From Candidatus Izemoplasmatales bacterium (GTDB lineage Bacteria; Bacillota_I; Bacilli_A; Izemoplasmatales; Hujiaoplasmataceae), in assembly GCA_050177605.1 (NCBI GenBank), contig JBFXGX010000004.1, positions 24,479-88,478 of the forward strand: a stretch of DNA of 64,000 nucleotides, given 5' to 3'. Positions 5,738 to 48,700 of the stretch are shown here, piece after piece (position 1 is the stretch's first letter; the number at the start of each line of letters is the position of its first letter). Both the position numbers and the translations under genes were made by a program. The notes beneath the pieces are model-generated. The model made no database searches and was not told the DNA's origin. It saw only the letters and a program-made list of their open reading frames with translations.

Positions 5738-5752
5738 ATACAATTTATAATG

Positions 5753-5792
5753 AAAGCCATAGAGGATAGGAATCTTACGTATGGCTTTTTTT
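5753..5792 (+). terminator. Intrinsic terminator of the pro/TCA operon
   Basis: AAAGCCATA...TATGGCTTT stem followed by a T run. Confidence 0.8.
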
Positions 5793-5844
5793 ATTGAGAG
5801 AAAATCATTAAATTCTTTTAGATTATTTTAGATTATTTTTATTA

Positions 5845-5873
5845 TTGACATTTTTGAACATTTATAGTAAAAT
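5845..5873 (+). promoter_or_regulatory. Sigma-A/70 promoter
   Basis: TTGACA-17 nt-TAAAAT; implies that the TTG start at 5845 in the ORF track is not the real start. Confidence 0.75.
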
Positions 5874-5895
5874 AAAAAAAGAGGGGGATGATTTT

Positions 5896-8361: not shown

Positions 8362-8487
8362 TTGAATATTTTCATGTGTTTTGTTTGATTGTCCTTGCAC
8401 AAATTCAAGGATTTATAGTAAAATGACAATATTAAGATATTAATCTTTTTTAGATTCACTAATATAGATTATCTAGGAGGGGACCTT

Positions 8488-30342: not shown

Positions 30343-30417
30343 TAATTAAATGTATGATTGTATAAACATTTATTTGGATTTATGAATTAATGTATATTTT
30401 GTAGAGCAGGTGATTCA

Positions 30418-31107
30418 ATGAATAAAAACATAAATTCTAAAAAAATAGTAGAACTTGAGTCATTACTAAACCCAAATTATTATTATGTTTTTCGAGCTGA
30501 TGGAGTTGATTTTAAAGAGTTTAGAGTGGGGAAACTTGATGCCAATGAGTTAGTCCAGTTAGGAGAGGTATTTCATGAAATCTCAAAATTAGTTTTCAAA
30601 ACATTTCATTTCGTAAAATTCATATATTATTTCGATGATGAAATCAATCTAGCGTTCAAAGGAAATCAAATTGGATTTGGAAGAAGAGTACAGAAAAACC
30701 TTTCTATTTTGTCAGCGTATATCTCAGTTGAATTTAATAGACTTATATCTTTGACTTCGTTTGACGATAAATTGAAAAGAAAAGGCGAATACTATTTTGA
30801 CGGAAGATTTGTTGAGATAAAGAAATATGAAGCACTTATAGATTATTTCGAAAAGGAACAAACAAAAAGCTATGTTCAGGTTAAAAATTTACTTACGCAT
30901 CGTGGAATGCTAAGTAAGAAACCTAGCATTAATTATATTATCGCTAACTATTTAGATGATGAAGATGATTTAAGAAGTTATAAATGTCTATTTGGGTGTT
31001 TCCTTTCCAGTAATCTCGAAGAAAGACATATGATTTCGACTGAAGAAGAACTAATTTTAGATATTACTTCGTTGATTGAAAAATCATTTAGTAAGAAACC
31101 CAAATAG
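30418..31107 (+). CDS. Thg1-like protein (tRNA-His guanylyltransferase / 3'-5' polymerase family), divergent
   Basis: RADGxxF, DDEINL, FGRRVQKxxS, FN, FDGRF correspond to Thg1 RxDG, SDEIS, GRxQKxxS and FDxR motifs. Confidence 0.72.
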   Translation: MNKNINSKKIVELESLLNPNYYYVFRADGVDFKEFRVGKLDANELVQLGEVFHEISKLVFKTFHFVKFIYYFDDEINLAFKGNQIGFGRRVQKNLSILSAYISVEFNRLISLTSFDDKLKRKGEYYFDGRFVEIKKYEALIDYFEKEQTKSYVQVKNLLTHRGMLSKKPSINYIIANYLDDEDDLRSYKCLFGCFLSSNLEERHMISTEEELILDITSLIEKSFSKKPK

Positions 31108-31128
31108 TATAGATATATTTCGGAGGTT

Positions 31129-31575
31129 TTGATGAGTCATAAAAGTAGATTCAATCAAGAATTGAAAAAATCTGGATTAACACCTATCGGTTTTTTGATA
31201 GGCATTGTTGCTTTTGTTATATCTGGAGCTTGGGTTATTTTTATTTCTATATTATTTATTCTACTTATATATATTATTGTTAATCATTATATTCAAAACA
31301 AGTTGTGCTCTAGTATTATATCCTACTATATTACTTCTGTTGTTATGTCAATTATGGAACTCTTAATTAATTATTTTCCGAATTCCATAGGCGGAGGATT
31401 ATTTGAGTCTGGATATATTGTTGCTGATTTTATCACACTAAGTAGTATAATTGATTGGATTATCAAAATACAAACAGATTCTTGGGGCATTATATATGAT
31501 TGGATTATTGTAATGTCAGCTGTTATAGTGACTATCGTGTGTTTAATTATTTCGAAAAATAGGCTAAAAAAATGA
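31129..31575 (+). CDS. Small multi-pass membrane protein (likely start 31132)
   Basis: RBS GGAGG; about four hydrophobic helices. Confidence 0.7.
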   Translation: MMSHKSRFNQELKKSGLTPIGFLIGIVAFVISGAWVIFISILFILLIYIIVNHYIQNKLCSSIISYYITSVVMSIMELLINYFPNSIGGGLFESGYIVADFITLSSIIDWIIKIQTDSWGIIYDWIIVMSAVIVTIVCLIISKNRLKK

Positions 31576-31730
31576 AGTTGAATTTATAATAATCATTCTA
31601 TTAATGCGAATTGATATATAGATAGATATTTGTTTTTCGGCGTATTTTCTATATGAATGTGTAATAATATGCTTCGTTTTCCAAGAATCAAGGATTAGTT
31701 TCGAATAGGATAATATATTTATGAAAGGCG

Positions 31731-34499
31731 ATGTTGGCGTTGTTTATAATTCAAGAGGATTCATTTCATAACAAGAGTAAAGAGGAAATTAGCAGATATG
31801 TGTATGGATCATACAACAAGTTTAAGTATATGATTTATTATAACGCTTCATACCTAATCTACAAAAAGAGAATAGTAGAATTTGAAAATGATGGTAAAAA
31901 AGAAAGAAAAATTCAAGCGCTAATCGATTTTATTTATGGAGATTTATCCGATGAAAATTATATTGATTATCTTCTTGATAGAATCGACTATTATCCAGTT
32001 ATTAAGAAAGAAACGATAATAAACGGATCTAAACATATCGCTTTAAATTACTTTATAGATATTCCTGTTGAACTACATATAATTGATGTTATGTGGACCA
32101 TAATCAAAGGATTGTCATTCAAAAATGATGAAATGGAAAAGTTTTGGTACGGTAATTTGTTGAATAAAAAGCAATTATACAAACAAAATGCTCATACTCT
32201 CAATGATATATTATGGGAAACGAATTTTCTATTCAATAAATACATTAAGGATTATAATAAATGGATATCTGAGTCTTTGAAATGCATTAAAAATCAATGC
32301 AATATTAATGATGATTTAACGCTGGTATCTTCTGACTTAAAACGATTTTATTACTCTACGAATTCACCATTTAGAGAATTCCCATCAACTACTTATAACT
32401 CAATTATCGAGCCTTATTTGAGTGCTCTTACAGTAGTTATTGAAAAAATGTATCAAAAATATCATTCTATGATAGCTTCTATATCAAAAATCGACATGGG
32501 TGAATGTATCCTTCCCATTGGACTAACATCATCAATGTTAATCGCAAACGCATATCTCTCCGATTTTGATGATTCGATTTCAAAACTTGATGATGTAATT
32601 TTTTATGGAAGATATGTAGATGATATGATAATTATTTTTAAGAAAGAAGTTAAACTAGAAGAAGCGAAGAAATTACTTAAATCACTCCTTGAAGAAAATC
32701 AGTATAATGTTTCAATTAATGAGGAGAAAACTGCTGTTTTTTCTTATCATAATTACAATTTTCTTTCTACCGAAGAACGATTTATTAACTATATAAAAAC
32801 TAAATCGAATAGTTATGTTGGAAATGAAGACTTAGAAGAAGTATCATTTGAAAGGTATTTTGAATTCGAAAAAAAATACCTCAACAACAATTTGATTTCT
32901 AATTCACAATTATCCGAAGATATGTTTGTAAAGATTGACGTACATGATGCAATTATATTTATGAACTATATTTACGATTTGATTGATTTTAGTCATGAAG
33001 TTAGAGAAGTTATTTACAATAAGATCACTACATTTATAAACACCACAACCAAATTTACTATGTGGAAAGAAATTTATAGATGGGTGAACTCATTCCAAAT
33101 CCAAAATGATAGTGTTTTAGAAATTGAAAAACTATTGCAGGAAAGATTCAAGAATATGATTGAAAACAATATTGAAGAAATTAATGCCGTCTTTTCAGAT
33201 AATGTTCATAAGAAACTTATGAGTACATATGAGGAAATTAATGAGATATCAAAAATACTAGCTCGAGTTGAAGAAAACACACCTTATGCAAGGGCATTTG
33301 AATTATCAGGAATGTGTAGAAAAGACAGTATTATCAAACATCTGGTAATCAATTATAGAGAAAATAAGAAACTATTCAATAATTCGACTGAGTATTATAA
33401 GGATTACTATGGAAATTATTTACCTTTTATTCACCTATGGGAAGTCGTACTTTTTGACCAGTTAGTGAATTTATCTAAGAAGAACCATAAATCTTATCAA
33501 GAATCAGTGCGAACATTTACCGAGTTAAACCATATTAATGAATTTGATAATATCTATTTTGCTAAATCTATAGAGATGGATAATCTGAATGGAGACGTGA
33601 TTGTTATCGGTGATCAACAAAAAATGAATTCTTTTGTTGTTAGTCATCCTAATATTAATCTAGATTCTGATGAGTTCATTCCTTTATCAAAACATCATGT
33701 AATACCTAGCACTACTGACACAAGACTGTTTATAAGGAATTTACTCGACTCATTTGAAAATAATACTAGTACACTGGTATTACCAGAATTATATGTAAAG
33801 TTAGAATGGTTGCCTATCGTTGCCAGAATAGCTCATCATAAAGAATTTAACGTGTCGATGGGTGTTGAAAATCTAGTGTTAGGGCGTCGGTTTTACAATG
33901 TAATGATTTCGTTGTATTCTTTTAGGGATTCATTTTCTCATAGAAACCTTTTTCCAATAGTGCGTGAGAAGAACTTTTATTCATATATTGAACAGGAATG
34001 GTGCGATCAACCTTCAGTTAAGCTTATATGTAGAAATCCATCTACTCCGAAGTACTATCTTGTGAAAAATAAAGGTATTTCATTTGTGGATTATCTATGC
34101 TTTGAGATAACGGATATATTTTCGAGAGCCTTATTCAAAGGGATGGCTGATGTCACTATCTTGCCAATGTTAAATAGAGATACTACCTATTTTGATAACA
34201 TAATTCAATCTCTTAGTAGAGATTTATCTTGTTGTGTTATTACATCAAATTCTGCAACATGGGGTAATTCATCAATCATTCTTCCGAGATCGTCTCATGA
34301 AAAAGTGTTAACTGATTTTAAAGGAGGATTTAATAACTATCTTGTATCTTCTCTTTTACCAGTTTATGAATTAATAAATTTTAATAATAGTTTTTATTGG
34401 AAGAATAAAAATATTCCATTTAAGAAACATCCAGCAAATTATAATCATATATCAATCGACTCACATGAGAAAGAGGATTATAAATTGGATTGGGAGTAG
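31731..34499 (+). CDS. Reverse transcriptase fused to a C-terminal nitrilase (C-N hydrolase) domain; UG1/DRT1-like defence RT
   Basis: RT motifs DLKRFYYS, LPIGLTSS..IAN, YGRYVDD; nitrilase E-K-C triad in LPEL, REKNFYS, LCFE. Confidence 0.85.
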   Translation: MLALFIIQEDSFHNKSKEEISRYVYGSYNKFKYMIYYNASYLIYKKRIVEFENDGKKERKIQALIDFIYGDLSDENYIDYLLDRIDYYPVIKKETIINGSKHIALNYFIDIPVELHIIDVMWTIIKGLSFKNDEMEKFWYGNLLNKKQLYKQNAHTLNDILWETNFLFNKYIKDYNKWISESLKCIKNQCNINDDLTLVSSDLKRFYYSTNSPFREFPSTTYNSIIEPYLSALTVVIEKMYQKYHSMIASISKIDMGECILPIGLTSSMLIANAYLSDFDDSISKLDDVIFYGRYVDDMIIIFKKEVKLEEAKKLLKSLLEENQYNVSINEEKTAVFSYHNYNFLSTEERFINYIKTKSNSYVGNEDLEEVSFERYFEFEKKYLNNNLISNSQLSEDMFVKIDVHDAIIFMNYIYDLIDFSHEVREVIYNKITTFINTTTKFTMWKEIYRWVNSFQIQNDSVLEIEKLLQERFKNMIENNIEEINAVFSDNVHKKLMSTYEEINEISKILARVEENTPYARAFELSGMCRKDSIIKHLVINYRENKKLFNNSTEYYKDYYGNYLPFIHLWEVVLFDQLVNLSKKNHKSYQESVRTFTELNHINEFDNIYFAKSIEMDNLNGDVIVIGDQQKMNSFVVSHPNINLDSDEFIPLSKHHVIPSTTDTRLFIRNLLDSFENNTSTLVLPELYVKLEWLPIVARIAHHKEFNVSMGVENLVLGRRFYNVMISLYSFRDSFSHRNLFPIVREKNFYSYIEQEWCDQPSVKLICRNPSTPKYYLVKNKGISFVDYLCFEITDIFSRALFKGMADVTILPMLNRDTTYFDNIIQSLSRDLSCCVITSNSATWGNSSIILPRSSHEKVLTDFKGGFNNYLVSSLLPVYELINFNNSFYWKNKNIPFKKHPANYNHISIDSHEKEDYKLDWE

Positions 34500-34850
34500 T
34501 TATTTGATAAATTCCTATTTTGAACATAACATTCAAACAAATTTCTTTCATTATATTCACAATTCCGTCTGAGAGTATATATTTCCTATTTCAAGATAAG
34601 TACCAAAAAGATGTTTGCGTTGTCGAAAAATCATTCTGATAAACGTCCCATTTATCCGGTAAATTCTCAGTATAATTTGTTTATAATAGATATGGGATTT
34701 AGCAACAAAGCAATTATATTATTATTCGCACATATATTAGACTATAGTTAATGTAGTTACAATCTAGTTAATTAATGAAATTAATAGTGAGGTTTAATTA
34801 TTGCAAAATATCTATAGCGTTATAATCATAGAAATATGGAGAAGAGAAAA

Positions 34851-36893
34851 ATGAAAATCGAGAAGATTGAACTAAAGAACTACAGACTTATGCAAAATAC
34901 TAGTCTTCGTTTAGAGGATTTGGAGACTGTAATTGTAGGAAAAAACAATACTGGAAAGACTTCTTTAATGTCTTTTTTGCATCTAATAACTGGAGACAAA
35001 TCAAAAACTTTTCTATTTGATGATTACCCGGTTCCCTATAGAAATAGTATTTATGACTTTATACTTACTATAGATTTATTATCTCTTGATGATAATGAAG
35101 TCAGAAAAGTTTTTAAAGAACCGGAATTGCGAATAGAAATTGATTATAGTGATTTTGATGAAAATTCATCTTTGGGTGGATTGAGACCATTTGTAATTGA
35201 TTTGGAAGAGACAGTTAAGAAAACAATTGTGCTTGCTAGATATGATTATATTTTACCGATTACTTCATTACTGTTGATGATTAAAAATATTAGAATACAA
35301 AAAGAGTATATTGAAGGTGATGAAAGTGTAAAAAGGACAATTATCCGTGAACGAATATCATCGTATTTTCCAAATTTTTACAAACTAAATATTTATGCAG
35401 TTAATCCGATGACTGAGACAGATATTCAATTAAAAACACAAGAAGACTTAAAGAACCTTCTTTCAATCTACTTTGTAAGAGCAGAAAGAGCTATGGATGA
35501 ATCCGATCAAGGGAATAATAAGCAACTTGAAAAACTCTTGGATAGAATATTCAGTCCATTAACTGAACTTGATGAAGTAGATGAAACTGATACAACGCCT
35601 GAAGGAATCAAAAGAGCAGAAATTTTTCGGATGCGAAGCGGAATACAAGAAATGGTTTCAAGCTTTAATTCTGATATAAATGAAAAAATAGATATTAAAA
35701 TGGTAGAACTAATAAAAAAATCAATCGGATTTGGATATCCAGACAGTGAAGAAATATCACTTTCTGCAAAGTCTAACATACATATTGATGATTTAATTCG
35801 AAGAAATACTGACCTTTGGTATGTAGACCCATTAACAAATGAAGTATTACCTAGTTCATTGAACGGGTTAGGATATAAAAATTTGTTGAAAATCGAGTTT
35901 GAATTAGTAAACTATTTTCAAACAGTTGAAAACGACAAAGAAGGGCGACTTTATTTGCTTTTTATTGAAGAACCTGAATCACATATGCATCCACAGCTTC
36001 AACAAAAATTCGTTTCTTTTTTATCTGAATTTTTAAAAGGACTGTCATCCAAAAAAATTCAGGTGATTTTGACTACACATTCTTCTCATATTGTCAATCA
36101 AGTCAAATTTTCAAGCATAAGATATGCAAAAAAAACCGGTCTGTCATTAGAATTAAAGGATTTCAAAGAATTCAGCACAGATAATCCTGATAATGCTGAG
36201 TTTATTCAAAAATATTTAACACTATATAGATGCGACTTATTTTTCGCGGATAAAGCAATATTATTCGAAGGATCATCCGAACGAATATTAATACCTGAAG
36301 TCATTAGAAGACTAGCCCAAAACAATAAATTTGTTGGTACTAGTGTGCCACTCGACAGACAATATATATCACTTATTGAAGTTGGTGGCGCATATGCTTA
36401 TCTATTCTTTGAATTTCTTAAATTCCTTGAACTACCATCTTTAATTATTACTGATATTGATTCGATTGATAGTGAACGAAAAAAGTGTGTTGTTAGCGAG
36501 GGGGTGTCTTCTTCAAATGCAACAATAAAAAAATGGTTTGAACTATATATAAATCCAGATGATAGATCCAAAGATGAAACTTCTTTAGCTAAGATAATAG
36601 AACTATCTGAGGACGAAAAAACTCAAGGTAACATTCATATAACATATCAAACTGAGGAGAACTCTATCATTGCAAGAAGTTTAGAGGAGTCAATAATCAA
36701 TATTAATAGAGTTTACTTTAAATGCTCACCAGATTCCAATGAAGAAGAAATCAAATGCAAAAATTCATCTAAAATCGATTTTGCATTGAATCTCATATTT
36801 GATAACCCCAATTTTGTCATTCCTCATTACATTGAAAGTGGGTTGACTTGGCTAAATAGTGCAAATAAAAGTGAGGTTATTCATCGTGAATAA
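34851..36893 (+). CDS. gajA: OLD-family ATP-dependent nuclease (ABC ATPase plus TOPRIM), Gabija GajA-like
   Basis: VGKNNTGKTS, IEEPESHMHPQLQ, TTHSSHI, LFEGSSE, TDID; RBS GGAG before ATG 34851; followed by a UvrD gene. Confidence 0.8.
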   Translation: MKIEKIELKNYRLMQNTSLRLEDLETVIVGKNNTGKTSLMSFLHLITGDKSKTFLFDDYPVPYRNSIYDFILTIDLLSLDDNEVRKVFKEPELRIEIDYSDFDENSSLGGLRPFVIDLEETVKKTIVLARYDYILPITSLLLMIKNIRIQKEYIEGDESVKRTIIRERISSYFPNFYKLNIYAVNPMTETDIQLKTQEDLKNLLSIYFVRAERAMDESDQGNNKQLEKLLDRIFSPLTELDEVDETDTTPEGIKRAEIFRMRSGIQEMVSSFNSDINEKIDIKMVELIKKSIGFGYPDSEEISLSAKSNIHIDDLIRRNTDLWYVDPLTNEVLPSSLNGLGYKNLLKIEFELVNYFQTVENDKEGRLYLLFIEEPESHMHPQLQQKFVSFLSEFLKGLSSKKIQVILTTHSSHIVNQVKFSSIRYAKKTGLSLELKDFKEFSTDNPDNAEFIQKYLTLYRCDLFFADKAILFEGSSERILIPEVIRRLAQNNKFVGTSVPLDRQYISLIEVGGAYAYLFFEFLKFLELPSLIITDIDSIDSERKKCVVSEGVSSSNATIKKWFELYINPDDRSKDETSLAKIIELSEDEKTQGNIHITYQTEENSIIARSLEESIININRVYFKCSPDSNEEEIKCKNSSKIDFALNLIFDNPNFVIPHYIESGLTWLNSANKSEVIHRE

Positions 36894-38592
36894 TAGAAAA
36901 TTAGCAATAGAAGAAGCTAATAAGATTGATTTTGAAATAATCGAGGCTCTACAAAAGGGTTCGCATTTTAGGGTTGACGCTGGGGCTGGTAGTGGAAAAA
37001 CATATTCATTAATTAGAGCTGTTGAGTGGCTACAGGAAAATAAATGGAATGAGTTCAATAGAATGAATCAAAAGGTTGCATGTATCACTTATACGAATGC
37101 AGCAGTAGATGTAATTCGAAGTCGTTTAAAAAATGATTCATTCATCATACCATCAACAATTCATTCATTTGTCTGGGAAGCAATGAAGCAGTTTCAAATT
37201 GATTTACTTAGAAATGCAAAGGAGATTTTGATTGATAAAGATTACATAGATTTTAATTATGTAAAAAAAATAGAATATACATTAGGAAAAAGATATCAAG
37301 ATGGTGATACTCTATATTTATTCCATGATGATGTAATTAAGTTATTCGTTATATTAATTGATAAGCCAAAATTTAGAACGATATTAAGTAATCAATATCC
37401 TATAATTCTGATTGATGAATACCAAGATTCATTTAAATCTATCGTAGATAAATTTGTTGAGTATTTCATTGAAAACAAGTCTACACCTCAATTTGGATTT
37501 TTTGGTGATTCTTGGCAAACCATTTATCAAATGCAAGGAGCTGTTGGTGAGATTAATAGCGATAATATAGTCATAATTCAAAAGAAATCAAACTTTCGCT
37601 CTGCAAGCAAAATTGTAGAAATGCTTAATAGAATAAGACCGGAATTACAACAAATAACCGCTGAAGACAATTATGAAGGAAGTACTACAATAATTGATTG
37701 CAGTGATTATAAGGGTAGTAGAATTCAGGGTGGACTGTTTTCAAATGATTTGCCAAACGACGTACTAATGGAGCGTATAGAGAATTTAGAAAATGTACTG
37801 TATAGAGACTTAACTAAAACCTGTAAGACTTTATTTTTAACACATCGAATAATTGCCAGTAATGAAGGTTACCCTGACTTGTTAAATCTTTTTGATGATG
37901 GTTTTAAAGACAAAACAGATGCTTTTTTGCTCTTTTTTATGGAGAAAGTTGAACTTATTGTCAGTGGTTTAGAACAGGGATTAACACAACAAATTTTTGA
38001 TGTCTTAGGTTTAAAGCAATATCCTATTAACGCGATTTCTGATAAGAAAAAATGGTATAAATTTAAAGATGACATATTTACAAGCAGAAATAAAAAAGTT
38101 ATCGATGTACTAGATTCAATTAATAACAGTGGATTGCTTACATTTCCGGAAGAGATTGAAAAAATATATAGTAATTATCCAAAAAATAATGAAGAACCCT
38201 ACAGAAATGGGTCAATAGGTAAATTAATGAATCTAGATTATTCACAGATATTAGCTGCAATCTCTTATCATAAACCAAACTCACTAGTGTCAACAAATCA
38301 TGGTGTTAAAGGCGAAGAATACGATAATGTAATTTTTGTTGTCAGCAAAGGTTGGAATAACTACAATTTTGATAAGTATCTACCAATGAGCCAAAAAGAA
38401 CAAAAAGATAATTATGAATCATACAAAAGAAATAGAAACTTGTTTTATGTTTGCTGCTCTAGAGCTAAGTCAAATTTCATCATGTTCATAACATACCCCG
38501 TGTCAAATGGGTTTAAAGAATATTTGACTAATTTGGTAGGTATCAATAACTACATGAGTTATGATCAATATATTAAACAGAATAATGCTTAA
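36886..38592 (+). CDS. gajB: UvrD-like helicase, Gabija GajB-like
   Basis: AGAGSGKT, ITYTNAA, IDEYQD, FGDSWQTIY, NFRS, HGVKGEEY, FYVCCSRAK; GTG start at 36886 with RBS GAGGT overlaps the GajA stop. Confidence 0.8.
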   Translation: MNNRKLAIEEANKIDFEIIEALQKGSHFRVDAGAGSGKTYSLIRAVEWLQENKWNEFNRMNQKVACITYTNAAVDVIRSRLKNDSFIIPSTIHSFVWEAMKQFQIDLLRNAKEILIDKDYIDFNYVKKIEYTLGKRYQDGDTLYLFHDDVIKLFVILIDKPKFRTILSNQYPIILIDEYQDSFKSIVDKFVEYFIENKSTPQFGFFGDSWQTIYQMQGAVGEINSDNIVIIQKKSNFRSASKIVEMLNRIRPELQQITAEDNYEGSTTIIDCSDYKGSRIQGGLFSNDLPNDVLMERIENLENVLYRDLTKTCKTLFLTHRIIASNEGYPDLLNLFDDGFKDKTDAFLLFFMEKVELIVSGLEQGLTQQIFDVLGLKQYPINAISDKKKWYKFKDDIFTSRNKKVIDVLDSINNSGLLTFPEEIEKIYSNYPKNNEEPYRNGSIGKLMNLDYSQILAAISYHKPNSLVSTNHGVKGEEYDNVIFVVSKGWNNYNFDKYLPMSQKEQKDNYESYKRNRNLFYVCCSRAKSNFIMFITYPVSNGFKEYLTNLVGINNYMSYDQYIKQNNA

Positions 38593-38967: not shown

Positions 38968-39408
38968 TTGATGAAAAAGGAAGATGTAGAGAAGAAAATA
39001 GAACAATTATGTTCTTTCATAGGAACACGTATTAATAAAAATTTGGCTACAACAGCCATAACTTGTTCTGGTTATGCTGCTGAACATAATATTCCTAGTC
39101 AAGACTCGTTAGCAATTGTTGGAGATCATGTTATAAAATTGTTAATTTCTTCGTCAAATTACAAAAAAACGCCTGTTATATCGAAAGAGAAACTACATCA
39201 AGCCGTAGATAAAAATGGACAAAATGAATTTTTGGAAAAAATAGGACAAGAGCAAAATATTGATAAATTTCTACTATATATAAACACTGATCTAGAAGGC
39301 AAAAAGAAAAGAGCTACATCTCTTGAAGCTATTATTGGCGCTGTTTATCTATCAAAGGGAAGCAAAGCAGTTGAAAAATTAGCACATAAGTTAAAAATAC
39401 TTGAATAG
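38968..39408 (+). CDS. Stand-alone RNase III domain protein (Mini-III-like, no dsRBD)
   Basis: LAIVGDHV and ATSLEAIIGAVYL match the Mini-III pattern LAxxGD / TxxEAxxGxxYL. Confidence 0.75.
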   Translation: MMKKEDVEKKIEQLCSFIGTRINKNLATTAITCSGYAAEHNIPSQDSLAIVGDHVIKLLISSSNYKKTPVISKEKLHQAVDKNGQNEFLEKIGQEQNIDKFLLYINTDLEGKKKRATSLEAIIGAVYLSKGSKAVEKLAHKLKILE

Positions 39409-39445
39409 ATATTGCTAAGGATTTTACGAGTTCTATAATAAAATT

Positions 39446-39586
39446 AGAAAAAATAACTGAGGATTGCATTTCCTCAATAAGAGTTGATATCTCTTAAATG
39501 AACTATAACAGTTGGCGCTCTTATCAAGTTGCAATGCCAAACCTTAATGACAAATAAACCAAGGCAGTAAAATGTTTTGGTTTTTT
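39446..39586 (+). ncRNA. Candidate ~140 nt structured sRNA with its own promoter and terminator
   Basis: TTGCTA-16-TATAAT (39412-39439); three hairpins with complementary loops; terminator AAACCAAGGCA/TGTTTTGGTTT plus T run (39556-39586). Confidence 0.55.
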
Positions 39587-39683
39587 GTTCCTCAATATTC
39601 AAAATAATTATATATCTCATATTTATGTTGATTAGTATAAAATATTTCTTTATATTTACGATAAATAATGCTATAATCAAGTT

Positions 39684-39770
39684 GCGGAACGTAAACACTA
39701 TGGGTGTACTCCTTCGTTCCGCAAAACTATAGGTGTACACCTCCATATAATTAATTTGCACTCTTTTTCA
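39684..39770 (+). ncRNA. Candidate short RNA A (3' end uncertain)
   Basis: Extended -10 TGCTATAAT (39669-39677); stem GCGGAACG/CGTTCCGC; two CTATRGGTGTAC copies. Confidence 0.45.
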
Positions 39771-39814
39771 AAAAAATGATTGCAATTTTTTATTTTTGGG
39801 ATTATACTGTAATT

Positions 39815-40045
39815 GCGGAACGAGGGCGGTCATCGTTTTTAAAAGACCGAAACCCAAAAAGGTTACTATTAATTTATTAGTAATCTGAGTAGGATGTACA
39901 CCTATATATATTCACACGAAATGTGTGAACGAAAGGCAGAAAGACTCCAAAATTGGATTGTTTTTTGATTTCTTTTCGCTCGAGAGAAAAGAATGCAGAA
40001 ACGATCAATATGAGTTTATCTGTACACCAATATATATAGGAGAAG
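39815..40045 (+). ncRNA. Candidate structured leader or ncRNA B of the viperin operon
   Basis: TTGCAA-17-TATACT (39780-39808); at least four hairpins; two TGAGT-N4/5-TGTACACC-WATATATA motifs. Confidence 0.55.
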
Positions 40046-40050
40046 ATAAA

Positions 40051-40506
40051 ATGAACTATTTTTTAGTGAAGTGTAAATTTGGCCATGTAGGAAGAAACAA
40101 GTATTTACCTTTATTGATTCCAGTGATTGCTGAAAACGCAAAAGAAGCTAGTAGCCAAGCAAAAAAGATTGGTGGAGTAAAAAAAGATCATAAGGATTGG
40201 TGTTTAGAGTATCCAAAACAAGTAGAATTCAATGAATATCAAAAAGCATATATTGATTTTAGAAATGATATCTATTTTGAAAAGAAAAGCAGATCTCGTA
40301 TTGAGTTATTTACAGGAAGACTCGTTGATGAGCCAAACTACTCAAATATCAATGGCATAAAAACTAACAAACCGATTATTTATCATAAAAGAAATAGAGA
40401 TGTAATAGAGTATAAGAAGAAAAGAGAGCAGGAGTACCTTTCAACTATCAGCCCTTATAGACTTAGAATACTTAACAGTACCTCGAAGCCAAAAGGAGTT
40501 GCGTAG
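40051..40506 (+). CDS. Basic hypothetical protein (151 aa), first gene of the viperin operon
   Basis: RBS AGGAG at 40038 then ATG at 40051; KCKFGHVGRNKY...VIAENAKEA; family not recognised. Confidence 0.75.
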   Translation: MNYFLVKCKFGHVGRNKYLPLLIPVIAENAKEASSQAKKIGGVKKDHKDWCLEYPKQVEFNEYQKAYIDFRNDIYFEKKSRSRIELFTGRLVDEPNYSNINGIKTNKPIIYHKRNRDVIEYKKKREQEYLSTISPYRLRILNSTSKPKGVA

Positions 40507-40507
40507 T

Positions 40508-41341
40508 ATGGGACAGTATCCATTTCACGTGTTCAATTTTCACCTTACAGAAAAATGTAATTATCAATGTAAATATTGCTTTGCCAAGTTTAACAATCAA
40601 TCTGAACTCAATCTAAAACAATGGAAAGAGGCTGTTGACTTAACGAATCAATATTTTATAAGAAATAATATTAGAAATGGAAGAATCAACCTGGCAGGGG
40701 GAGAACCATTAATTCTTCCCTTTCTAGATGAATTAATCGATTATATTCATTCTCTAGACATTATTGTCTCGATTATCACAAACGCTTCACTGCTTACGGA
40801 AGAAAAGATACAAAAATGGATTGGTAAGGTTGACACAATTGGTGTAAGCATCGATTCCATAAATTATAAAACAAATCTGAAAATAGGCCGACATAACAAT
40901 GGACAAGTAATAGATGTTGAAAACATTATTTCATTGCTCCAACTAGCGAAGAAAAATAATATCAAGGTTAAGATTAACACAGTTGTTTCTGCGCTAAATA
41001 TAAATGAAAGAATAGATCAAATATATAAACGAGTTCAACCCGATAGAATTAAAATACTACAGATGAGGGTAAACCAAAATTGCAATGAACATTCTATTAT
41101 GCTTCAAACTTCTGATGAAGATTTCCATAAACATTGTAGATATTTGAATAATTACCAAAATGTTGTGATTGAGAACTCGCAAGAATTAGAATGCTCATAT
41201 CTAATAGTTGACTCAATGGGGAATATGCTTTCCAACAAAAATAATGTTCAAAATATTGTAGGGAATATCTTGAAAGATGATATAGAAAAGATGATTGATG
41301 CTGCCGAAATAAATCATTTTACATACGCAAAAAGATACTAA
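40508..41341 (+). CDS. Prokaryotic viperin (radical SAM antiviral enzyme, pVip)
   Basis: NFHLTEKCNYQCKYCFA, INLAGGEP, SIITNASLL, GVSIDS, KINTVV, RIKILQ, SYLIVDSMG; RBS AAAGGAG then ATG at 40508. Confidence 0.88.
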   Translation: MGQYPFHVFNFHLTEKCNYQCKYCFAKFNNQSELNLKQWKEAVDLTNQYFIRNNIRNGRINLAGGEPLILPFLDELIDYIHSLDIIVSIITNASLLTEEKIQKWIGKVDTIGVSIDSINYKTNLKIGRHNNGQVIDVENIISLLQLAKKNNIKVKINTVVSALNINERIDQIYKRVQPDRIKILQMRVNQNCNEHSIMLQTSDEDFHKHCRYLNNYQNVVIENSQELECSYLIVDSMGNMLSNKNNVQNIVGNILKDDIEKMIDAAEINHFTYAKRY

Positions 41342-41357: not shown

Positions 41358-43925
41358 ATGGAACTTATTTTAAAACTGTCATATAACAATAAAGATTCAA
41401 ACCCAGGGCTACTGGAGTGGTATAACGATTTAATTACAAATAAGAACATTTTAACTGCCAAACTTTCAACTAAAAGACTAGACATCGAAAGAGATACTAA
41501 AGATGCAAGAAATATCAAATCACTTAGAAAAATAGAAATCGCTATAGAACTAGTTGAAGGTTTTCTTGTTTTGAAAGGTCATCTGGGGTGTTCATATAAA
41601 CAACCTTTTGGTGGAGAATTCTATATTATTGATTATAAAGAAATTTCTAACGGAAAATTTTCATCGCTGAATGGAGTTCCGGTTGATTTAATGTTTGATA
41701 ATAACTATCCCACAACAATTGAGAATATGTATACATACTTATATGTGATTAGCAGTGATTCTAATTTTGTATTCAATATCGGACAATTTGACGAATTTAT
41801 GGAAGTTTTCAAATTTTATAAAACACTCTCAGATGAAATTAATAATAGTGCAACTTACGAAATTAAAGAAGTAAGCTCACCTTATTATTATCTGCCAGTT
41901 GATACGAAAGAACTTTTCGATGAAGAAAATAATATACTTTCAAATTATGTAGGAATTGTAACAATAAATGATAAAGAAGATCTTATAAAAGGATATCGTA
42001 TTCCAAACTATATTTATGATCGCTTTAATAATGAATTAAAGGACATTACAATGAGTTTAGTCGATATCCATATCGATTATCAAGAACATGCGTTACGGAA
42101 GATTCAAAAAATGAGAGATAATATTTTTGTAAGTGATTACAAATTAGTCGATGAAAAAAACGCTAAAAATATAAGAGAACTTGAATTCGTCAATTTGTAT
42201 AGACAAAAAGACAGGATAATAATCAATGTGAATGAAAGCCATGTAATCAAAGAGAAATTTCTTAACCTATATGATATGGGCCAAAAAATAAAAATAGAAT
42301 CCATCGAAAATTCATTGAGATTAATAAACCAAGGGAACACAGGCGCATCCATGAAAATGATTGAGTATCTTATCGGAGATGAAGCTATGCCAAGTGCTAA
42401 TAGTAGGCATATTAGTAATCAAGCATACATTCAATCTGAATTACGCGTGAATAAAGTTAAGGAAAAATATATTAAAGAATTAAACGAGTCTCAACAAATA
42501 GCCTTTTTAAAGTCGGTTGATGGGTTGCCTGTAACACTTATTAAAGGTCCACCAGGCACAGGAAAAACGCATGTAATTAATGCGGTTACACAGTATATAA
42601 CAAAAGAGCTCCATGAAAAAGTAGTTATATCTTCTCAAACCCATGTAGCTATAGATAATGTTCTTGATAAGTTAATGGAAAACTATGATTTAGTCATTCC
42701 AAATAGGATTACTAATCGACGCAACAAGTATAGTTTGGAGGAAATTGATAAAACAATTTATAAAAATTGGGGTTTAAAAATTGATAATCATCTTTCAAGG
42801 TGCACAGATCAAACCTTGGTAAGTAGAGTGAAAGATAATCTTAAGAATTTCAATGGAAAGCAAGAGATTGAGTATTCAAGAAATATGATTAACGAATTCT
42901 CAGTTATTGGAGCAACAACTACCACAAGCGCTATATCTGGAAAGAAAGGTCTTGAATTACTTAAAGATTATAAATGGTTAATTATTGATGAAGTATCAAA
43001 ATCGCCTATTACTGAAGTCTTAAGATACTTGCCTTATGTAGATAATATCATTTTGGTTGGCGATGATTATCAATTATCTCCTCTTCTAGAATTTTCAAAA
43101 GAGGATGTAAAACATTTACCTTCTTATGATGATGAGATGTATGATAAATTACAAACAATCTATGAACAATCTATCTTCTCAAAAACAATTAATAAAGCAA
43201 GAGCTGCTGGACGACTCATTGTTCTTGAAGAAAATTATCGATCTGTGAAAGATGTTTTAGCAGCGTACAATGTATTTTACGATGGAAAACTTAAGAATAT
43301 GAGAGAAAATATTAATCCGAGAAAAGTACAGTTTGGCAGTCAATCGTCTCTTTCAAATAACTATGATGTCTTTTTTGTAGAACCTCTTGGTGCGACAGAA
43401 AAAGATGATTCGAAATCTCATTCTAGATATAATATTCAAGAAGCGCAGGCGACCGCATTGATACTAGAAGATATATTGAAAAATGTGATTAATCCTAGTT
43501 CGGTTTCTGCCTCGGCAATATTTCCATACGCTGCTCAAATTGAGTATTTCACAAAAAACTATAAAGACCTAATAAACCGGGCAAAGAAAGTTTTGAAAAG
43601 TTTTGAATTGGATACAGTGGATGCGTTTCAAGGTCGCGAAACAGACATTGTCTTAGTTAATACAGTAGTCACAAGACTCGATAAAAAGAACTTTCTAAAG
43701 GATTTTAGAAGAATCAATGTTTCAATGTCTAGAGCAAAAGACAAACTTGTTGTATTTGGGTCTCGCGACCTAATGCGTCTAGAAATGGATACCCCTGATG
43801 GAGGAACAAGACAATATTTTAGATCGATTATTGAAGCAATCACAAGAGATGGAAAAACGATTAAAGTGAACCAAAAAGGAGAGATAATTAGCAATGAAAG
43901 TACAAGTAAGACTAAATTTGCCTGA
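41358..43925 (+). CDS. SF1B DNA2/NAM7 (Upf1-like) helicase with a long uncharacterised N-terminal region
   Basis: GPPGTGKT, SSQTHVAIDN, IIDEVS, VGDDYQLSP, NYRS, PYAAQ, TVDAFQGRE, RRINVSMSRAK. Confidence 0.88.
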   Translation: MELILKLSYNNKDSNPGLLEWYNDLITNKNILTAKLSTKRLDIERDTKDARNIKSLRKIEIAIELVEGFLVLKGHLGCSYKQPFGGEFYIIDYKEISNGKFSSLNGVPVDLMFDNNYPTTIENMYTYLYVISSDSNFVFNIGQFDEFMEVFKFYKTLSDEINNSATYEIKEVSSPYYYLPVDTKELFDEENNILSNYVGIVTINDKEDLIKGYRIPNYIYDRFNNELKDITMSLVDIHIDYQEHALRKIQKMRDNIFVSDYKLVDEKNAKNIRELEFVNLYRQKDRIIINVNESHVIKEKFLNLYDMGQKIKIESIENSLRLINQGNTGASMKMIEYLIGDEAMPSANSRHISNQAYIQSELRVNKVKEKYIKELNESQQIAFLKSVDGLPVTLIKGPPGTGKTHVINAVTQYITKELHEKVVISSQTHVAIDNVLDKLMENYDLVIPNRITNRRNKYSLEEIDKTIYKNWGLKIDNHLSRCTDQTLVSRVKDNLKNFNGKQEIEYSRNMINEFSVIGATTTTSAISGKKGLELLKDYKWLIIDEVSKSPITEVLRYLPYVDNIILVGDDYQLSPLLEFSKEDVKHLPSYDDEMYDKLQTIYEQSIFSKTINKARAAGRLIVLEENYRSVKDVLAAYNVFYDGKLKNMRENINPRKVQFGSQSSLSNNYDVFFVEPLGATEKDDSKSHSRYNIQEAQATALILEDILKNVINPSSVSASAIFPYAAQIEYFTKNYKDLINRAKKVLKSFELDTVDAFQGRETDIVLVNTVVTRLDKKNFLKDFRRINVSMSRAKDKLVVFGSRDLMRLEMDTPDGGTRQYFRSIIEAITRDGKTIKVNQKGEIISNESTSKTKFA

Positions 43926-45321
43926 AATTAAATATAAATTAATTATGAAATATAATACCTTTGAAAAGGTGTCGTTTGATAAATATTTGATTGCGTCTTT
44001 AATTTACTCCTCTACTAGTCAAAATTCGGCCTATCAGTTTATTGATCAATTATCTGGTGATGGAAGTTTGAACGAGCATTTTAAAAAGTTATATCTTGAG
44101 ATTAATGAAATGTCAAAGGATGAAATATATAGTATTCTTCAAAATTCACAATATCCAGTTCTTAAAATAAGTGAAGAATGGTTTAGGTATTATCCGCTAT
44201 TAAATATATCCAAATATCATAATCATATCTATTGTGATAATCTTGCAAATGATAAGAGTTTTCCGCTGCAACTTATTGAACAGGGTGGTACATATGTATC
44301 TCATAATTATGAACAAGGACAACCTGAATCCAATGTTGATCGATACGATGTAATATTAGAGCCGAATAAAATACAATTAAAAGTTGTAAATGATTTCTAT
44401 CCGATTTCTGAGTTAGACTTTCAACGAATAGTAGTTAAGGATTCAATTGATTTGAGCGCCTTTCGTGGAGATATACTAAAAGCGTTGACTGGAAATGATT
44501 GGATACAAATGAGCCAATCTAATTATAGAAATATTATGGATGCAAAGGATTACTATTACGAAAATGGCAATCATTTTGGAATCTATAATGATTATGTGAA
44601 GGAATCTTCGATTGCATTCGCATGGGGGCTATATTGGCTGAAGGAGAGAACATATTATTATCGTGATCCATCCTCAAAAGAGCAGTGCACGAAAGTAGCC
44701 AATGTATTACTTGAAACCGGAATGATCAATGAGTTCAAGACAAAATCACTTGTTGAAATATTAAAGAATATATCTAGAGATTTACAGCAGACAATTGTTA
44801 ATTACATTTTACAAAGAAAAGATTCAAAAGACCTAATCAACGTTGGTTACATTTTGATGGATAAGGGTTATGAAAAGGGCTGGTTTGAGAGTTCGCTCCT
44901 TGCTTTTTACAAATACAGAACATCTACTGAACAATTAATTAAAGTATACTCTCACTTCGACTCGGACATTTATACAATATCTGATCTGCTTGAGATTGAA
45001 AAATATGATAAGTCTGTACTTAGACATAATCATTCAATACAACTTGAAGTATACCATTCGGACCGTAATAAAATAATTAATACTATCACTTCAAGAGTAG
45101 GTGTTGTTACGTCATCTAGTGTGCGTGATAATATAGGTAGATTAAGACAAGATGAGGAAACAAAGAGACTTAAAAAATTAATGAACAAATATATTGGGCA
45201 TATGCAGAAAGATATTAACACTCAAAGCTTAGAGCAACTCAAGAAAATTGAAAATGATGTAGAGGAAATGTATCTTCTACATCTTCGAGTTAAGCAGGAG
45301 TTAGAGAGGTTACTTCAATAA
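43894..45321 (+). CDS. Hypothetical protein (475 aa) overlapping the helicase 3' end
   Basis: Long ORF; AGGAG RBS upstream; helical/coiled-coil C-terminus; family not recognised. Confidence 0.75.
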   Translation: MKVQVRLNLPEIKYKLIMKYNTFEKVSFDKYLIASLIYSSTSQNSAYQFIDQLSGDGSLNEHFKKLYLEINEMSKDEIYSILQNSQYPVLKISEEWFRYYPLLNISKYHNHIYCDNLANDKSFPLQLIEQGGTYVSHNYEQGQPESNVDRYDVILEPNKIQLKVVNDFYPISELDFQRIVVKDSIDLSAFRGDILKALTGNDWIQMSQSNYRNIMDAKDYYYENGNHFGIYNDYVKESSIAFAWGLYWLKERTYYYRDPSSKEQCTKVANVLLETGMINEFKTKSLVEILKNISRDLQQTIVNYILQRKDSKDLINVGYILMDKGYEKGWFESSLLAFYKYRTSTEQLIKVYSHFDSDIYTISDLLEIEKYDKSVLRHNHSIQLEVYHSDRNKIINTITSRVGVVTSSSVRDNIGRLRQDEETKRLKKLMNKYIGHMQKDINTQSLEQLKKIENDVEEMYLLHLRVKQELERLLQ

Positions 45322-45747: not shown

Positions 45748-48700
45748 ATGTCTTTTTTTGCGGGGTTATCTATGATTGTATTTCTTGATGTAGAAGTTTC
45801 TTTAGATAGTAAAAAAATAGTAGACTACGGCTGTTTGCGTGAAAATGGGGATTCTTTTCATACCGCTTCGGTGAGTGAGTTTATTAAATTTACCAAAAAA
45901 GCAGATATTTTTGTTGGACATAATATCATTTTTCATGATGTAAAATATCTGCAAAAAGTACTTCCAAGAAATTATATAAAAGAAATCAACTGTGTTGATA
46001 CACTTTTTCTATCGACACTATTATTCCCTGAGAACCCATACCATGCCCTTCTAAAAGATGATAAAACAGATAGCGATGATGCTAATAATCCTCTGAATGA
46101 TTCAATAAAAGCAAAACTTCTATTTGATGATGAAGTATCAACTTTTGAAAAACTAGATAATGATATTCAAGAGATATATTACAATTTGCTTTGGAATCAA
46201 CCAGGATTTGCAGCTTTTTTCAAGTATATCAAGTTCGATAGAAAACTAAAAAATTTAGCTGAAGTTATTAAATCCAAATATTATAATTTAATCTGTTCGA
46301 ATACAGATTTGGACAATGTTATTAAAAATTCTCCGATTGAATTAGCATATTGCTTGGCCTTAATTAGGACTAAAAAACTAAACTCATTAATGCCTGGATG
46401 GGTTTTAGTGAATTATCCTCAAGTTGAAGAAATTATGACTCAACTCCGTAATACTCCTTGTGCGATAGGATGTTCCTATTGTAATCAAAAACTAAATGCA
46501 ATTACTGAATTAAATCGCTTCTTTGATTATCCAAATTTCAAAGAATATAATGGAATTCCTCTTCAAGAAAAAGCTGTGAAAGCTGCGATGGAAGGAAAGT
46601 CGTTAATCGCTGTTTTTCCAACTGGAGGAGGAAAATCATTAACTTATCAATTGCCAGCATTAATCAGTCGAGAAAGTACAAGGGGACTCACTGTTGTAAT
46701 ATCACCTCTACAATCATTGATGAAAGATCAAGTTGATAATCTTGAAAGCAAAAATATTAATGCTTCAGTAACAATAAACGGTTTACTAGACCCTCTTGCA
46801 AGAAAAACAGCAATTGAGCGTGTAGAGAACGGCTCTGCAGGTATTTTATATATCGCTCCCGAATCACTCCGATCAAAGACTATTGAGAGATTATTGGTAC
46901 ATAGACACGTTGTTCGATTTGTAATAGATGAAGCACATTGCTTTTCTGCATGGGGTCAAGATTTCAGAGTTGACTATTTATATATCGCCGATTTTATAAA
47001 GAATATCCAAAATATTAAAGGGAATCGTAGTCCCATACCTGTATCCTGTTTTACTGCAACAGCAAAGCAGAATGTTATCAAGGATATTGAAGATTATTTC
47101 AGGAAAAAATTAGGTATTTCAATGCTTTTATTCGAAGCTAGTGGTAAAAGAGAAAATTTACACTATAAAGTCTACGATTTAAAAACAGAAGATGACAAAT
47201 ATAAACTGATGAGGAATTTGATTGATCAAGAAAATTGCCCATCCATTGTCTATGCTTCTAGAAGAAAGACTGTAGAAGAGATATATGAACGACTTTTAAA
47301 CGACAATTATAAAGTTTCTAGATTCCATGGTGGTATGCAATCAGAGGAAAAGGAATCTGAACAAAACAAGTTTATGAGTGGCGAATCCACGATAATGATT
47401 GCTACTTCAGCTTTTGGTATGGGCGTTGACAAAAAAGATGTAGGATGTGTTATTCACTATGAAATTTCAAGTTCGCTTGAAGATTATGTTCAAGAATCTG
47501 GAAGAGCAGGTAGAGACCAAGACATTTTTGCAAACTGTTATATTTTGTATCAAGAAGACGATTTGAATAAACATTTTAATCTACTGAATCAAAGTAAAAT
47601 TACTGTTAAGGAAATTCAGCAAGTATGGAAAGGAATTAAGGATTTAAGCAAGATTCAGAACAACATTTCGCACTCAGCACTTGAAATTGCGAAAGCGGCT
47701 GGATGGGATGACAGTATATATGATTTGCAAACTCGCGTTACAACAGCTGTTGCAGTTTTGGAACAGTCAGGATATCTGAAAAGGGGACAAAATTCTCCAA
47801 AAGTATATGCGAATAGTATTTTGTCTCGAAGTGTAATTGATGCGCGCAAAATAATTGAATCGAGTGAAATTGTACCGAAAGACGATATCGATAATACAGT
47901 GCGAGTATTTTCAAAATTAATTTCAGCAAAATCCAATAAATATTCAAATGAAGAAATTCCTGAAGTTCGAATAGATTATATTTCGGAGCATCTAGGAATT
48001 CAAAAAAATGAAGTAGTTAGATTAGTCAATTATTTAAGGGAACTCAAGATTTTAGATGACGCTAAAGACTTATCTGCATATTTTAGAAGAACTTCAAAGC
48101 AAAATATTGCAAATAAAATACTACTATCATACATAGAACTCATCAAAAATATAATTAATGACTTTAGTACTGATTGGCAAATATATAACGTCAAAGAGAT
48201 TAATGAGAGAAATAGTGGAGATAATGTAGAATCAAATCTCAGAAAGATTAAGAATACAATCAACTTTTTAGAAATCGAAAACTATATTGAAATTCAAAAA
48301 CTAGAAAAAGATTATTTAAAAATTAGATTAAAAAAGCAAATTGAAGATACAGTTTTTTCACTTGAGCATATGTGGTCAATTTCCAGTGTAATCCTAACTT
48401 ATTTTGATTTAATCTCTAAAGATAAAATTAGAGAAGATATCGAATACATTGGAGTTAATTTTTCGGTAATAGAATTAAGAGATTATTACGAGACTAATAA
48501 ATCTTTACTCGACACAAAAAGCACATTAGATGAAATAGAAGATTCTCTATTGTTTTTACATAAAATTGAGGCCATTAAACTTCAAGGCGGATTTTTCGTG
48601 TTATACAGTCCTATGAAAATTGATAGAATTGAAATGGATAATCGAAAGCAATACACTAAGGCGGATTATGAAAAATTAGATCAATATTATAAGTCGAAAA

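Follow-up and report, generated by a model that had tools for sequence, protein, structure and literature searches.

FasX, like RoxS, is a small RNA of the type that protects the 5′ end of its target. RoxS base-pairs at the very 5′ end of the yflS RNA and thereby blocks RNase J1, as described in an excerpt of PMC5419742. The two predicted RNAs reported here, designated RNA A and RNA B, resemble the RoxS case in that their predicted pairing would include the target's predicted first nucleotides and the host lineage encodes RNase J. They have, however, no sequence relation to RoxS or FasX, RNA A is encoded directly upstream of its one target, whose 5′ end it duplicates as a decoy, and a second covarying site lies 80 nt downstream of the first. 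In par of pAD1 (RNA I and RNA II), several separated complementary sites connect a small RNA with a neighbouring leader; transcription of the two RNAs converges, and a small peptide serves as toxin. The present locus likewise has a small RNA and a neighbouring leader with more than one separated complementary site, whereas its RNA genes are arranged in tandem and large proteins are encoded. No ORF for a small hydrophobic toxin, of the kind found in type I toxin-antitoxin loci, was detected, the first ORFs encoding proteins of 151 aa or 461 aa or a helicase.

To our knowledge, very few defence systems beyond CRISPR, retrons, DRTs and type III toxin-antitoxin systems possess RNAs of their own. 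As in ToxIN, an RNA gene followed by a terminator is located directly upstream of effectors in a phage-defence setting, but the A/B locus has neither tandem repeats nor a ToxN-like nuclease and RNA B has its own promoter. No tandem repeat was found within positions 39409-40050, and no ToxN/AbiQ-type protein was identified with PADLOC or Pfam. Like crRNA:tracrRNA, retron and DRT RNAs, A and B are locus-encoded RNAs of a defence module, two of which pair together, although the conserved module is without a repeat array, Cas genes or a reverse transcriptase (RT). The RT of the window is 5 kb away, beyond Gabija, and has no counterpart in related loci. Synthetic toehold switches also have an unpaired segment (here CCUU) beside a stem, one strand of which gives way to a partner that is longer and pairs more stably; the A/B arrangement differs in being natural and in that the exchange would expose an identical 5′ copy rather than a ribosome-binding site.

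A small RNA with a neighbouring target leader is a known kind of element, while the RNA family, the link between this family and a helicase defence operon, and the decoy/strand-exchange design are new. No published description of the RNA pair was found in the literature, nor was any Mokosh-like or Upf1-like helicase system found to have been described with an RNA partner, and the Acholeplasma motif described in an excerpt of PMC8632094 is unrelated to A/B. The pair would constitute a new RNA family for databases. It resembles natural toehold-mediated strand exchange, in which the small RNA holds a decoy of the 5′ end of its target and three blocks co-evolve, and may offer a compact system, accessible to mutation, in which to study the restraint or activation of defence operons in RNase-J-type bacteria.

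Gene Content of the Locus

PADLOC and Pfam scans of the window, by which we mean the whole 64-kb stretch of DNA analyzed, placed the RNA pair inside a defence island of a low-GC genome. The genes surrounding it are as follows.

29242-34499: metallo-beta-lactamase-fold gene, Thg1-like gene and RT of UG5-nitrilase type
34836-38592: Gabija, GajA and GajB
38968-39408: RNase III-like gene, 146 aa (Pfam Ribonucleas_3_3, E 1.3e-14)
Between the RNase III-like gene and p151: gap of 642 nt without a convincing ORF
40051-40506, + strand: p151, first gene of the operon, family unassigned, optional in the module, 44 homologues
40499-41341, + strand: prokaryotic viperin (radical SAM; PADLOC pVip, E 6.3e-70), optional in the module
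41358-43925, + strand: Upf1-like SF1 helicase (MkoA-like; PADLOC MkoA, E 2.9e-68; Pfam AAA_11/AAA_12)
43894-45321, + strand: p475, partner of the helicase, which it follows; family unassigned, 64 homologue clusters

From its sequence, the p151/viperin/helicase/p475 operon is a candidate anti-phage operon. The helicase was found in every RNA-bearing locus of sufficient length, with 50-68% identity among related loci, and p475 succeeded it wherever an RNA-bearing locus reaches that far; p475 was observed after the helicase in the window, L004, L005, L006, L029, L030, G044 and G466. The first two genes were more variable, with p151 missing from L021, L023, L033 and L035, viperin missing from L004, L029 and L030, and a different 461-aa protein (p461) occupying the first position in L021, L023, L027 and L033. 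None of the 44 homologues of p151 matched any family library, all 64 homologue clusters of p475 were unnamed, and NCBIfam held no family for p151, p475 or p461. The predicted structure of p151 (pLDDT 82) gave no PDB match at E<=0.001.

Mokosh combines an MkoA-type helicase with a PLD nuclease, either as the separate protein MkoB or fused, as in MkoC. Pfam and PADLOC detected no PLD domain in the proteins neighbouring the helicase. A weak family match and weak ESM Atlas leads for its N-terminus place the helicase in the Upf1/IGHMBP2-like group, members of which act on RNA; the Atlas returned nothing for p475. The N-terminal region of the helicase was found in 4/400 genomes of the class.

Several further observations were made on the proteins of the module. 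Among PDB structures p151 most resembled, though weakly, the LX-type domain of an archaeal ribosomal protein (E 0.055), which is a lead only; its invariant residues include GHVGR and KDHKDWC, and the family also occurs as a solitary gene in L007-L020, where neither the RNAs nor the helicase accompany it and the setting is apparently chromosomal. The p461 genes (L021:967-2352; L023:2492-3880, minus strand; L033:2475-3863, minus strand) encode two invariant R-x4-H motifs at about residues 85-90 and 255-260, which may be HEPN-type RNase motifs, and the protein matched the PADLOC RTasHEPN model weakly (E 0.013-0.043). From these sequence features p461 may be a two-HEPN RNase. Profile comparison showed p475 and p461 to be unrelated, and the AlphaFold model of p461 (pLDDT 50) was too poor for a structure search.

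Promoters, Terminator and Predicted RNAs

The elements between the RNase III-like gene and p151, all on the + strand, are listed below.

39649-39677, +: promoter A, TTTATA-17-TATAAT with a TG extension at 39669-70 (consensus scan; 11/11 loci)
39684-39797, +: RNA A, predicted sRNA of ~110 nt (promoter, structured body and terminator; 13 other distinct sequences)
39684-39691, +: A 5′ arm GCGGAACG, forming stem S1 with 39715-22; copy of the B 5′ end
39702-39709, +: A segment GGGTGTAC, forming S2 with 39735-42 (pseudoknot with S1) or candidate I3 with B ACCC
39711-39724, +: A site for the B 5′ end, CCTTCGTTCCGCAA, I1 (165 Watson-Crick and 1 G-U of 166 cells)
39727-39739, +: A site CTATAGGTGTACA, forming I2 with B 39895-39906 (95% paired, 5 covarying pairs)
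39757-39797, +: RNA A terminator, weak hairpin 39757-84 and U tract 39786-97
39780-39808, +: promoter B, TTGCAA-17-TATACT, overlapping the A terminator; boxes kept in 11/11 loci
39815-39930, +: B conserved structured 5′ domain, 115 nt (alignments A3, A5 and A6), comprising the I1 site 39815-26, P1 39827-49, ACCC 39852-55, P2 39860-86, GAGTAGGA 39887-94, the I2 site 39895-906 and P3 39911-29
39931-40050, +: variable part of the leader, with stem 39962-40001, TGTACACC site 40021-32 and SD AGGAG 40038-42

A sequence-only reading of this region had proposed that two tandem promoters produce RNAs with the same 5′ end which are complementary at three sites. Every motif on which it drew was located where it had been placed: TGCTATAAT at 39669-77 and TTGCAA-17-TATACT at 39780-39808, GCGGAACG at 39684 and 39815 (each from the 7th base after the -10 box), CCTTCGTTCCGC at 39711-22, CTATRGGTGTAC at 39698 and 39727, TGTACACCTATA at 39895-906, TGTACACC at 40021 and AGGAG at 40038, together with the hairpins CGGTC/GACCG, AGGTTACTA/TAGTAATCT and TTCACAC/GTGTGAA and the long stem (39962-40001). 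The tandem promoters were also evident elsewhere, with -35 and -10 boxes at fixed distance in 11/11 loci; for both promoters the -35 box is 17 nt upstream of the -10 box, which ends 6 nt before the GC start. The -35 box of promoter B is a perfect TTGACA in five loci and the linker surrounding it is variable. Promoter, terminator and energy counts throughout rest on 11 loci, namely the window and 10 others.

A terminator for RNA A, consisting of a hairpin and U tract between the two modules, was found in 11/11 loci, with a dG of -4.1 kcal/mol for the window compared with -6.0 to -12.9 kcal/mol across the 10 other loci, and usually overlaps the -35 box or spacer of promoter B. With the promoters, that of A being of sigma-70 type, and this terminator conserved, the prediction for RNA A is a separate sRNA 100-130 nt in length. 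An own promoter and an own terminator, which are generic features of trans-acting sRNAs, were thereby recognized from sequence in 11/11 loci. The predicted start of RNA B is 131 nt downstream of that of RNA A, and RNA B heads the 236-nt leader of the operon. As no consistent terminator was found inside B before the first ORF across the 11 loci, B is most simply the leader of the operon, 186-274 nt in length. The sequence of the variable part of this leader (39931-40050) is not kept across loci.

Within the 64-kb window, TTGCGGAACG occurs exactly three times, all in this region; two copies are direct, each at the 7th base after a -10 box, and one is inverted. When one mismatch was allowed there were 5 matches against 1.0 expected, and 5 were reached in 0/100 shuffles. 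Matches to GGTGTACACC with <=2 mismatches numbered 10 against 5.8 expected, 4 of them within this 330-nt stretch; as 10 were reached by 6/100 shuffles, this motif is statistically weaker alone than TTGCGGAACG. The region is not a chance pattern, and the decisive support is comparative.

Occurrence in Other Genomes

A scan for relatives of p151, limited to one genome per species, recovered 17 loci. Three of these (L004, L005 and L006) continue with the same helicase and p475, and carry both RNA modules at the same distances to the start codon. Motif search and reading showed the other 14 to be unrelated contexts without the element, and a covariance model run on 13 of those 14 (L015 left out) gave a best E of 0.28. 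A gapped pattern built from the two invariant blocks of module B was then used to scan metagenomes, where it recovered 13 loci; the same scan of viral contigs gave 0 matches. Covariance model R1 (module B) scored 94 bits in the window and was positive in 2/151 genomes of the order, these being the window's own genome and G044. The resulting alignment A6 contains 14 distinct sequences, throughout which the two-part element lies upstream of the same helicase operon, and it recurs in these homologous loci with compensatory changes.

No Rfam 15 family was matched at its gathering score in the 64-kb window. A permissive Rfam search of 39300-40200 returned chance-level matches alone (E 0.37-8) and a search of six related loci returned nothing at E<=1. 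Likewise, blastn of the RNA region against plasmids and phages produced no match, a DNA search of relatives' genomes produced two 35-nt AT-rich chance-level matches alone, and among sequencing runs no RNA run was listed with this sequence.

In L044 (G466:C15), positions 4274-8411 encode a helicase of 51% identity, extended by 100 aa at its N-terminus, together with a p475 homologue; the genes upstream of them differ. Neither A nor B RNA was found in G466, the best B score being 9 bits in the locus, with E 0.5 for the whole genome.

Structure and Covariation of the RNA Pair

Module B contains three hairpins, P1, P2 and P3. P2 has 4 covarying pairs and an invariant G-U, and P1 has a compensatory G-C to C-G swap in L005. 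Between the hairpins run the invariant stretches (A)CACCCAAAAAGG and AAUCUGAGUAGGA; the single-stranded segments ACCCAAAAAGG and AAUCUGAGUAGGA, which flank P2, are invariant to a degree that exceeds the need of pairing with A, a hint that a protein or a tertiary contact is involved. For CUGAGUAGGA, a reading as hammerhead-like or kink-turn-like was discarded, the conserved positions misfitting when compared by eye with the consensus.

In RNA A the 5′-terminal stem S1 (8 bp) is paired in 100% of cells, with 3 covarying pairs, and is crossed by S2, in which GGGUGUAY pairs with RUACACCY (97% paired, 1 covarying pair). The minimum-energy fold of A contains either S1 or S2, varying by locus. S1, S2, P2 and P4 jointly were 98.7% paired.

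Between the RNAs, helix I1 joins CCUUCGUUCCGC of A with the first 12 nt of B (12-14 nt for I1 as a whole) and is 100% paired with 3 covarying pairs. Helix I2 joins CUAUAGGURUAC of A with GUAYACCUAUAG of B over 12-13 nt, ~80 nt further into B, with 148 Watson-Crick and 5 G-U of 161 cells and with mismatches that are mostly terminal. Taken together, I1, I2 and P2 were paired in 97.9% of cells compared with 89.2% in shuffles, a value reached by 0/500 of these, a statistic which, in a small sample of related members, overstates independence because several A6 rows are close kin; slid controls were 35-47% paired. Twelve pairs in these helices were changed on both sides, and compensatory complementarity, a generic feature of trans-acting sRNAs, was thus found in I1 (3 covarying pairs) and in I2 (5). 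I1 and I2 could form together only in a pseudoknot-like topology, which counts against the proposed pairing scheme.

The proposal that the predicted RNAs A and B share a 5′ end was supported by joint variation of the 8-mer across loci, where five joint variants of the A 5′ arm, A 3′ arm and B 5′ end were observed (GCGGAACG, GCGGACG, GCACAATG, GCGTAACG and GCACAACG). S1 is imperfect in some loci (G-U in L023 and L026, a bulge in L030), yet I1 is perfect there, so that the inter-RNA helix is apparently more constrained than S1. In L035, P4, a small hairpin within B, is broken by a change that has its compensation in A, and I2 is kept. By this comparison of sequences, the predicted RNAs A and B have co-evolved to base-pair with each other. 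All helices combined contained 53 G-U cells compared with 4 A-C cells; this preference, which includes the invariant G-U of P2, indicates constraint on the + strand RNA and not on DNA.

Of the three A-B contacts proposed in the sequence-only reading, two therefore stand as the covarying sites I1 and I2. The third, TGTACACC at 40021, is confined to the window: its energy there was reached by 0/200 shuffles, while in 10 other loci 17-98% of shuffles reached the energy of the corresponding RBS-proximal site, and it is specific to the window rather than a family feature. The core of a proposed sRNA/leader strand-exchange switch is accordingly retained in its promoters, terminator and two covarying sites, without the RBS-proximal site. 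Cofolding suggested another candidate contact, I3, in which GGGUGU of A pairs with ACACCC of B beside P1 and which would form a three-way junction with I1; both sides of I3 are invariant, and it consequently has no covariation support.

Predicted Strand Exchange

The duplex of the B 5′ end with A had a predicted energy of -22.6 to -25.7 kcal/mol in 11/11 loci, compared with -13.1 to -17.0 kcal/mol for A's own arms, making it 8-10 kcal/mol more stable. I2 (-14.5 to -22.2 kcal/mol) similarly exceeded S2 (-10.2 to -14.3 kcal/mol) in 11/11 loci, and cofolding of the two RNAs gave a gain of -7.8 to -22.8 kcal/mol in 11/11 loci. In most predicted folds without A, the B 5′ end was single-stranded. 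The CCUU beside the A stem, which is unpaired in free A and pairs with AAGG of B, is a predicted toehold, and the exchange of A onto B is predicted by these models to be favourable in 11/11 loci.

In the proposed mechanism, the A 5′ arm of free A would act as a decoy of the B 5′ end and hold the I1 segment through S1, and ACACC(U/C), a decoy of ACACCC of B, would hold its own segment through S2. With the B-binding segments of A held by internal decoys, binding of B would amount to strand exchange, beginning at the unpaired CCUU toehold. A would then pair with B at I1 and I2, possibly with a third contact, and these contacts would close the P1 and P2 hairpins of B into a compact junction.

Function of the RNA Pair and Alternative Explanations

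The RNA pair probably controls the helicase operon. The reading we favour, and to which we give a little more belief than doubt, is that a dedicated RNA pair precedes a candidate anti-phage operon and that A controls this operon post-transcriptionally through the 5′ end of B. The motifs with their conservation and covariation, the kept promoter and terminator signals and the energetics are results of the analysis; from them we infer the production of both RNAs, the position of their ends and the effect of their pairing. The preferred direction of control is one in which the duplex would shield the single-stranded 5′ end of the leader from RNase J, comparable to RoxS-yflS. The A:B pairing reaches the predicted +1 of B and two RNase J paralogues of the genome score above the curated cut-off; pairing at the extreme 5′ end, two RNase J genes and the RoxS-yflS precedent together favour control of leader stability. 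In the opposite direction, the duplex would mark the leader for decay, with A behaving like a labile antitoxin.

Two other outputs were considered and rejected. Occlusion of the RBS was modelled by blocking the A sites in silico, and the change in accessibility ranged from -0.03 to +0.23, inconsistently, over 11 loci. Attenuation would involve a terminator-like hairpin over I2, which was found only in L021, L033 and L035 and not in the other 8 loci. With no consistent RBS or terminator effect, regulatory output is left without a predicted read-out, and the conserved B domain, lying >100 nt from the start codon, also counts against a regulator.

These same inconsistencies speak for an explanation that is possible but which we hold unlikely, in which A and B form a bipartite structured RNA that is a working part of the defence machine as cofactor, scaffold or infection sensor; its protein partner could be the Upf1-like helicase, p475 or p151, and loading of the helicase on an exposed 5′ tail would be one example. 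It would accommodate the invariant single-stranded segments around P2, the weakly matched placement of the helicase in the RNA-acting Upf1/IGHMBP2-like group, and the fact that the helicase accompanies the RNAs wherever the locus is long enough, p151, viperin and p461 being optional. However, G466 carries a helicase of 51% identity and a p475 homologue without a B-like RNA, which fits a regulatory module better than an obligate cofactor, and B continues into the operon leader with no consistent terminator.

More specifically, and distinctly improbably in our estimation, A/B could serve an undescribed defence system of the Upf1-like helicase and p475 as its pseudoknotted cofactor or sensor, with infection read through the 5′ tail. 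The exchange would swap which RNA shows a free 5′-GCGGAACG tail, and infection would be read out by 5′-to-3′ loading of the helicase or by a phage factor that acts on the 5′ ends of RNA. Were this so, a natural toehold switch would form the core of a helicase immune system gated by RNA.

We are more doubtful still of A as a labile, antitoxin-like repressor which decays upon phage transcription shut-off and so releases a harmful operon. The layout is like that of type I/III toxin-antitoxin loci, with an sRNA gene and terminator directly upstream of effectors in a defence-island setting, and the window has an RNase III-like gene immediately upstream of the pair, but this gene is missing from all other loci, and there is no tandem repeat array, ToxN-like protein or small hydrophobic toxin ORF. 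In addition, the 5′ end of A is buried in a stem, which for RNase J substrates predicts a stable rather than a labile RNA.

Very unlikely is a single long RNA or leader transcribed from promoter A, with promoter B an AU-rich linker and the pairings intramolecular. The weak A terminator of the window (-4.1 kcal/mol) makes read-through transcripts likely there, and every pairing could also form in cis. Against this, the promoter B hexamers with 17-nt spacing are kept in 11/11 loci within a variable linker, five of them with a perfect TTGACA, and hairpins of -6.0 to -12.9 kcal/mol with U tracts precede promoter B in the 10 other loci.

That the repeats act on DNA, as repressor operators or as a 14-bp inverted repeat around an invertible promoter (both listed as alternatives in the sequence-only reading), is scarcely credible, for although AGGTGTACACCT is a perfect palindrome in the window, the 14-bp inverted repeat (39711-24, 39813-26) lies around a segment with promoter B and an ORF resembling a serine recombinase lies upstream in L031, other loci have the palindrome in imperfect form, the 53 G-U against 4 A-C cells are RNA-like rather than a DNA symmetry, no DNA-binding protein or recombinase is common to the loci, promoter B faces the operon in the one orientation in 17/17 loci with both repeats, no inversion joint was present in contigs of 3 runs (one contig spans the region; contigs drop rare variants) and 88 nt would be very short for an inverton.

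Additional Observations

The ORF upstream of RNA A in L031 (L031:138-752) begins MNYGYIRVSSDKQ and, by this motif, is presumably serine recombinase-like; it is missing from the near-identical L029 and L032 and from all other loci. The RNase III-like gene is found directly upstream of the RNA pair only in the window and is missing from all related loci. Between this gene and promoter A, a promoter-like site was noted at 39412-39439 and a terminator-like hairpin with a T run at 39556-39590. The sequence GCTCTTATCAAGTTGC at 39517-39532 repeats, in degenerate form, promoter A and its 5′ start (39670-85), and at 39496 AAATGAACTAT repeats the p151 start (40049) and opens a 19-codon ORF. The stretch 39412-39590 may represent an additional promoter and 5′ module that has since decayed.

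Elsewhere in the island, the genes at 29242-34499 encode, in one direction, a metallo-beta-lactamase-fold protein, a Thg1-like protein (PF04446, E 2.3e-14), a small membrane ORF and the RT of UG5-nitrilase type (922 aa, 31731-34499, PADLOC E 1.8e-100), and from their sequences are a candidate DRT-type system with a Thg1-like partner. Downstream of the operon, 45748-50586 encodes a 1612-aa protein with an N-terminal region judged by eye to be exonuclease-like; its helicase part is DpdF/RecQ-like (PADLOC DpdF, E 4.4e-96) and its C-terminus resembles UvrD/GajB. An Acholeplasma laidlawii record also contains homologues of both p151 and p475 (proteins P0005 and P0059; contig of 1,611,024 nt) and may represent a cultured carrier of the system.
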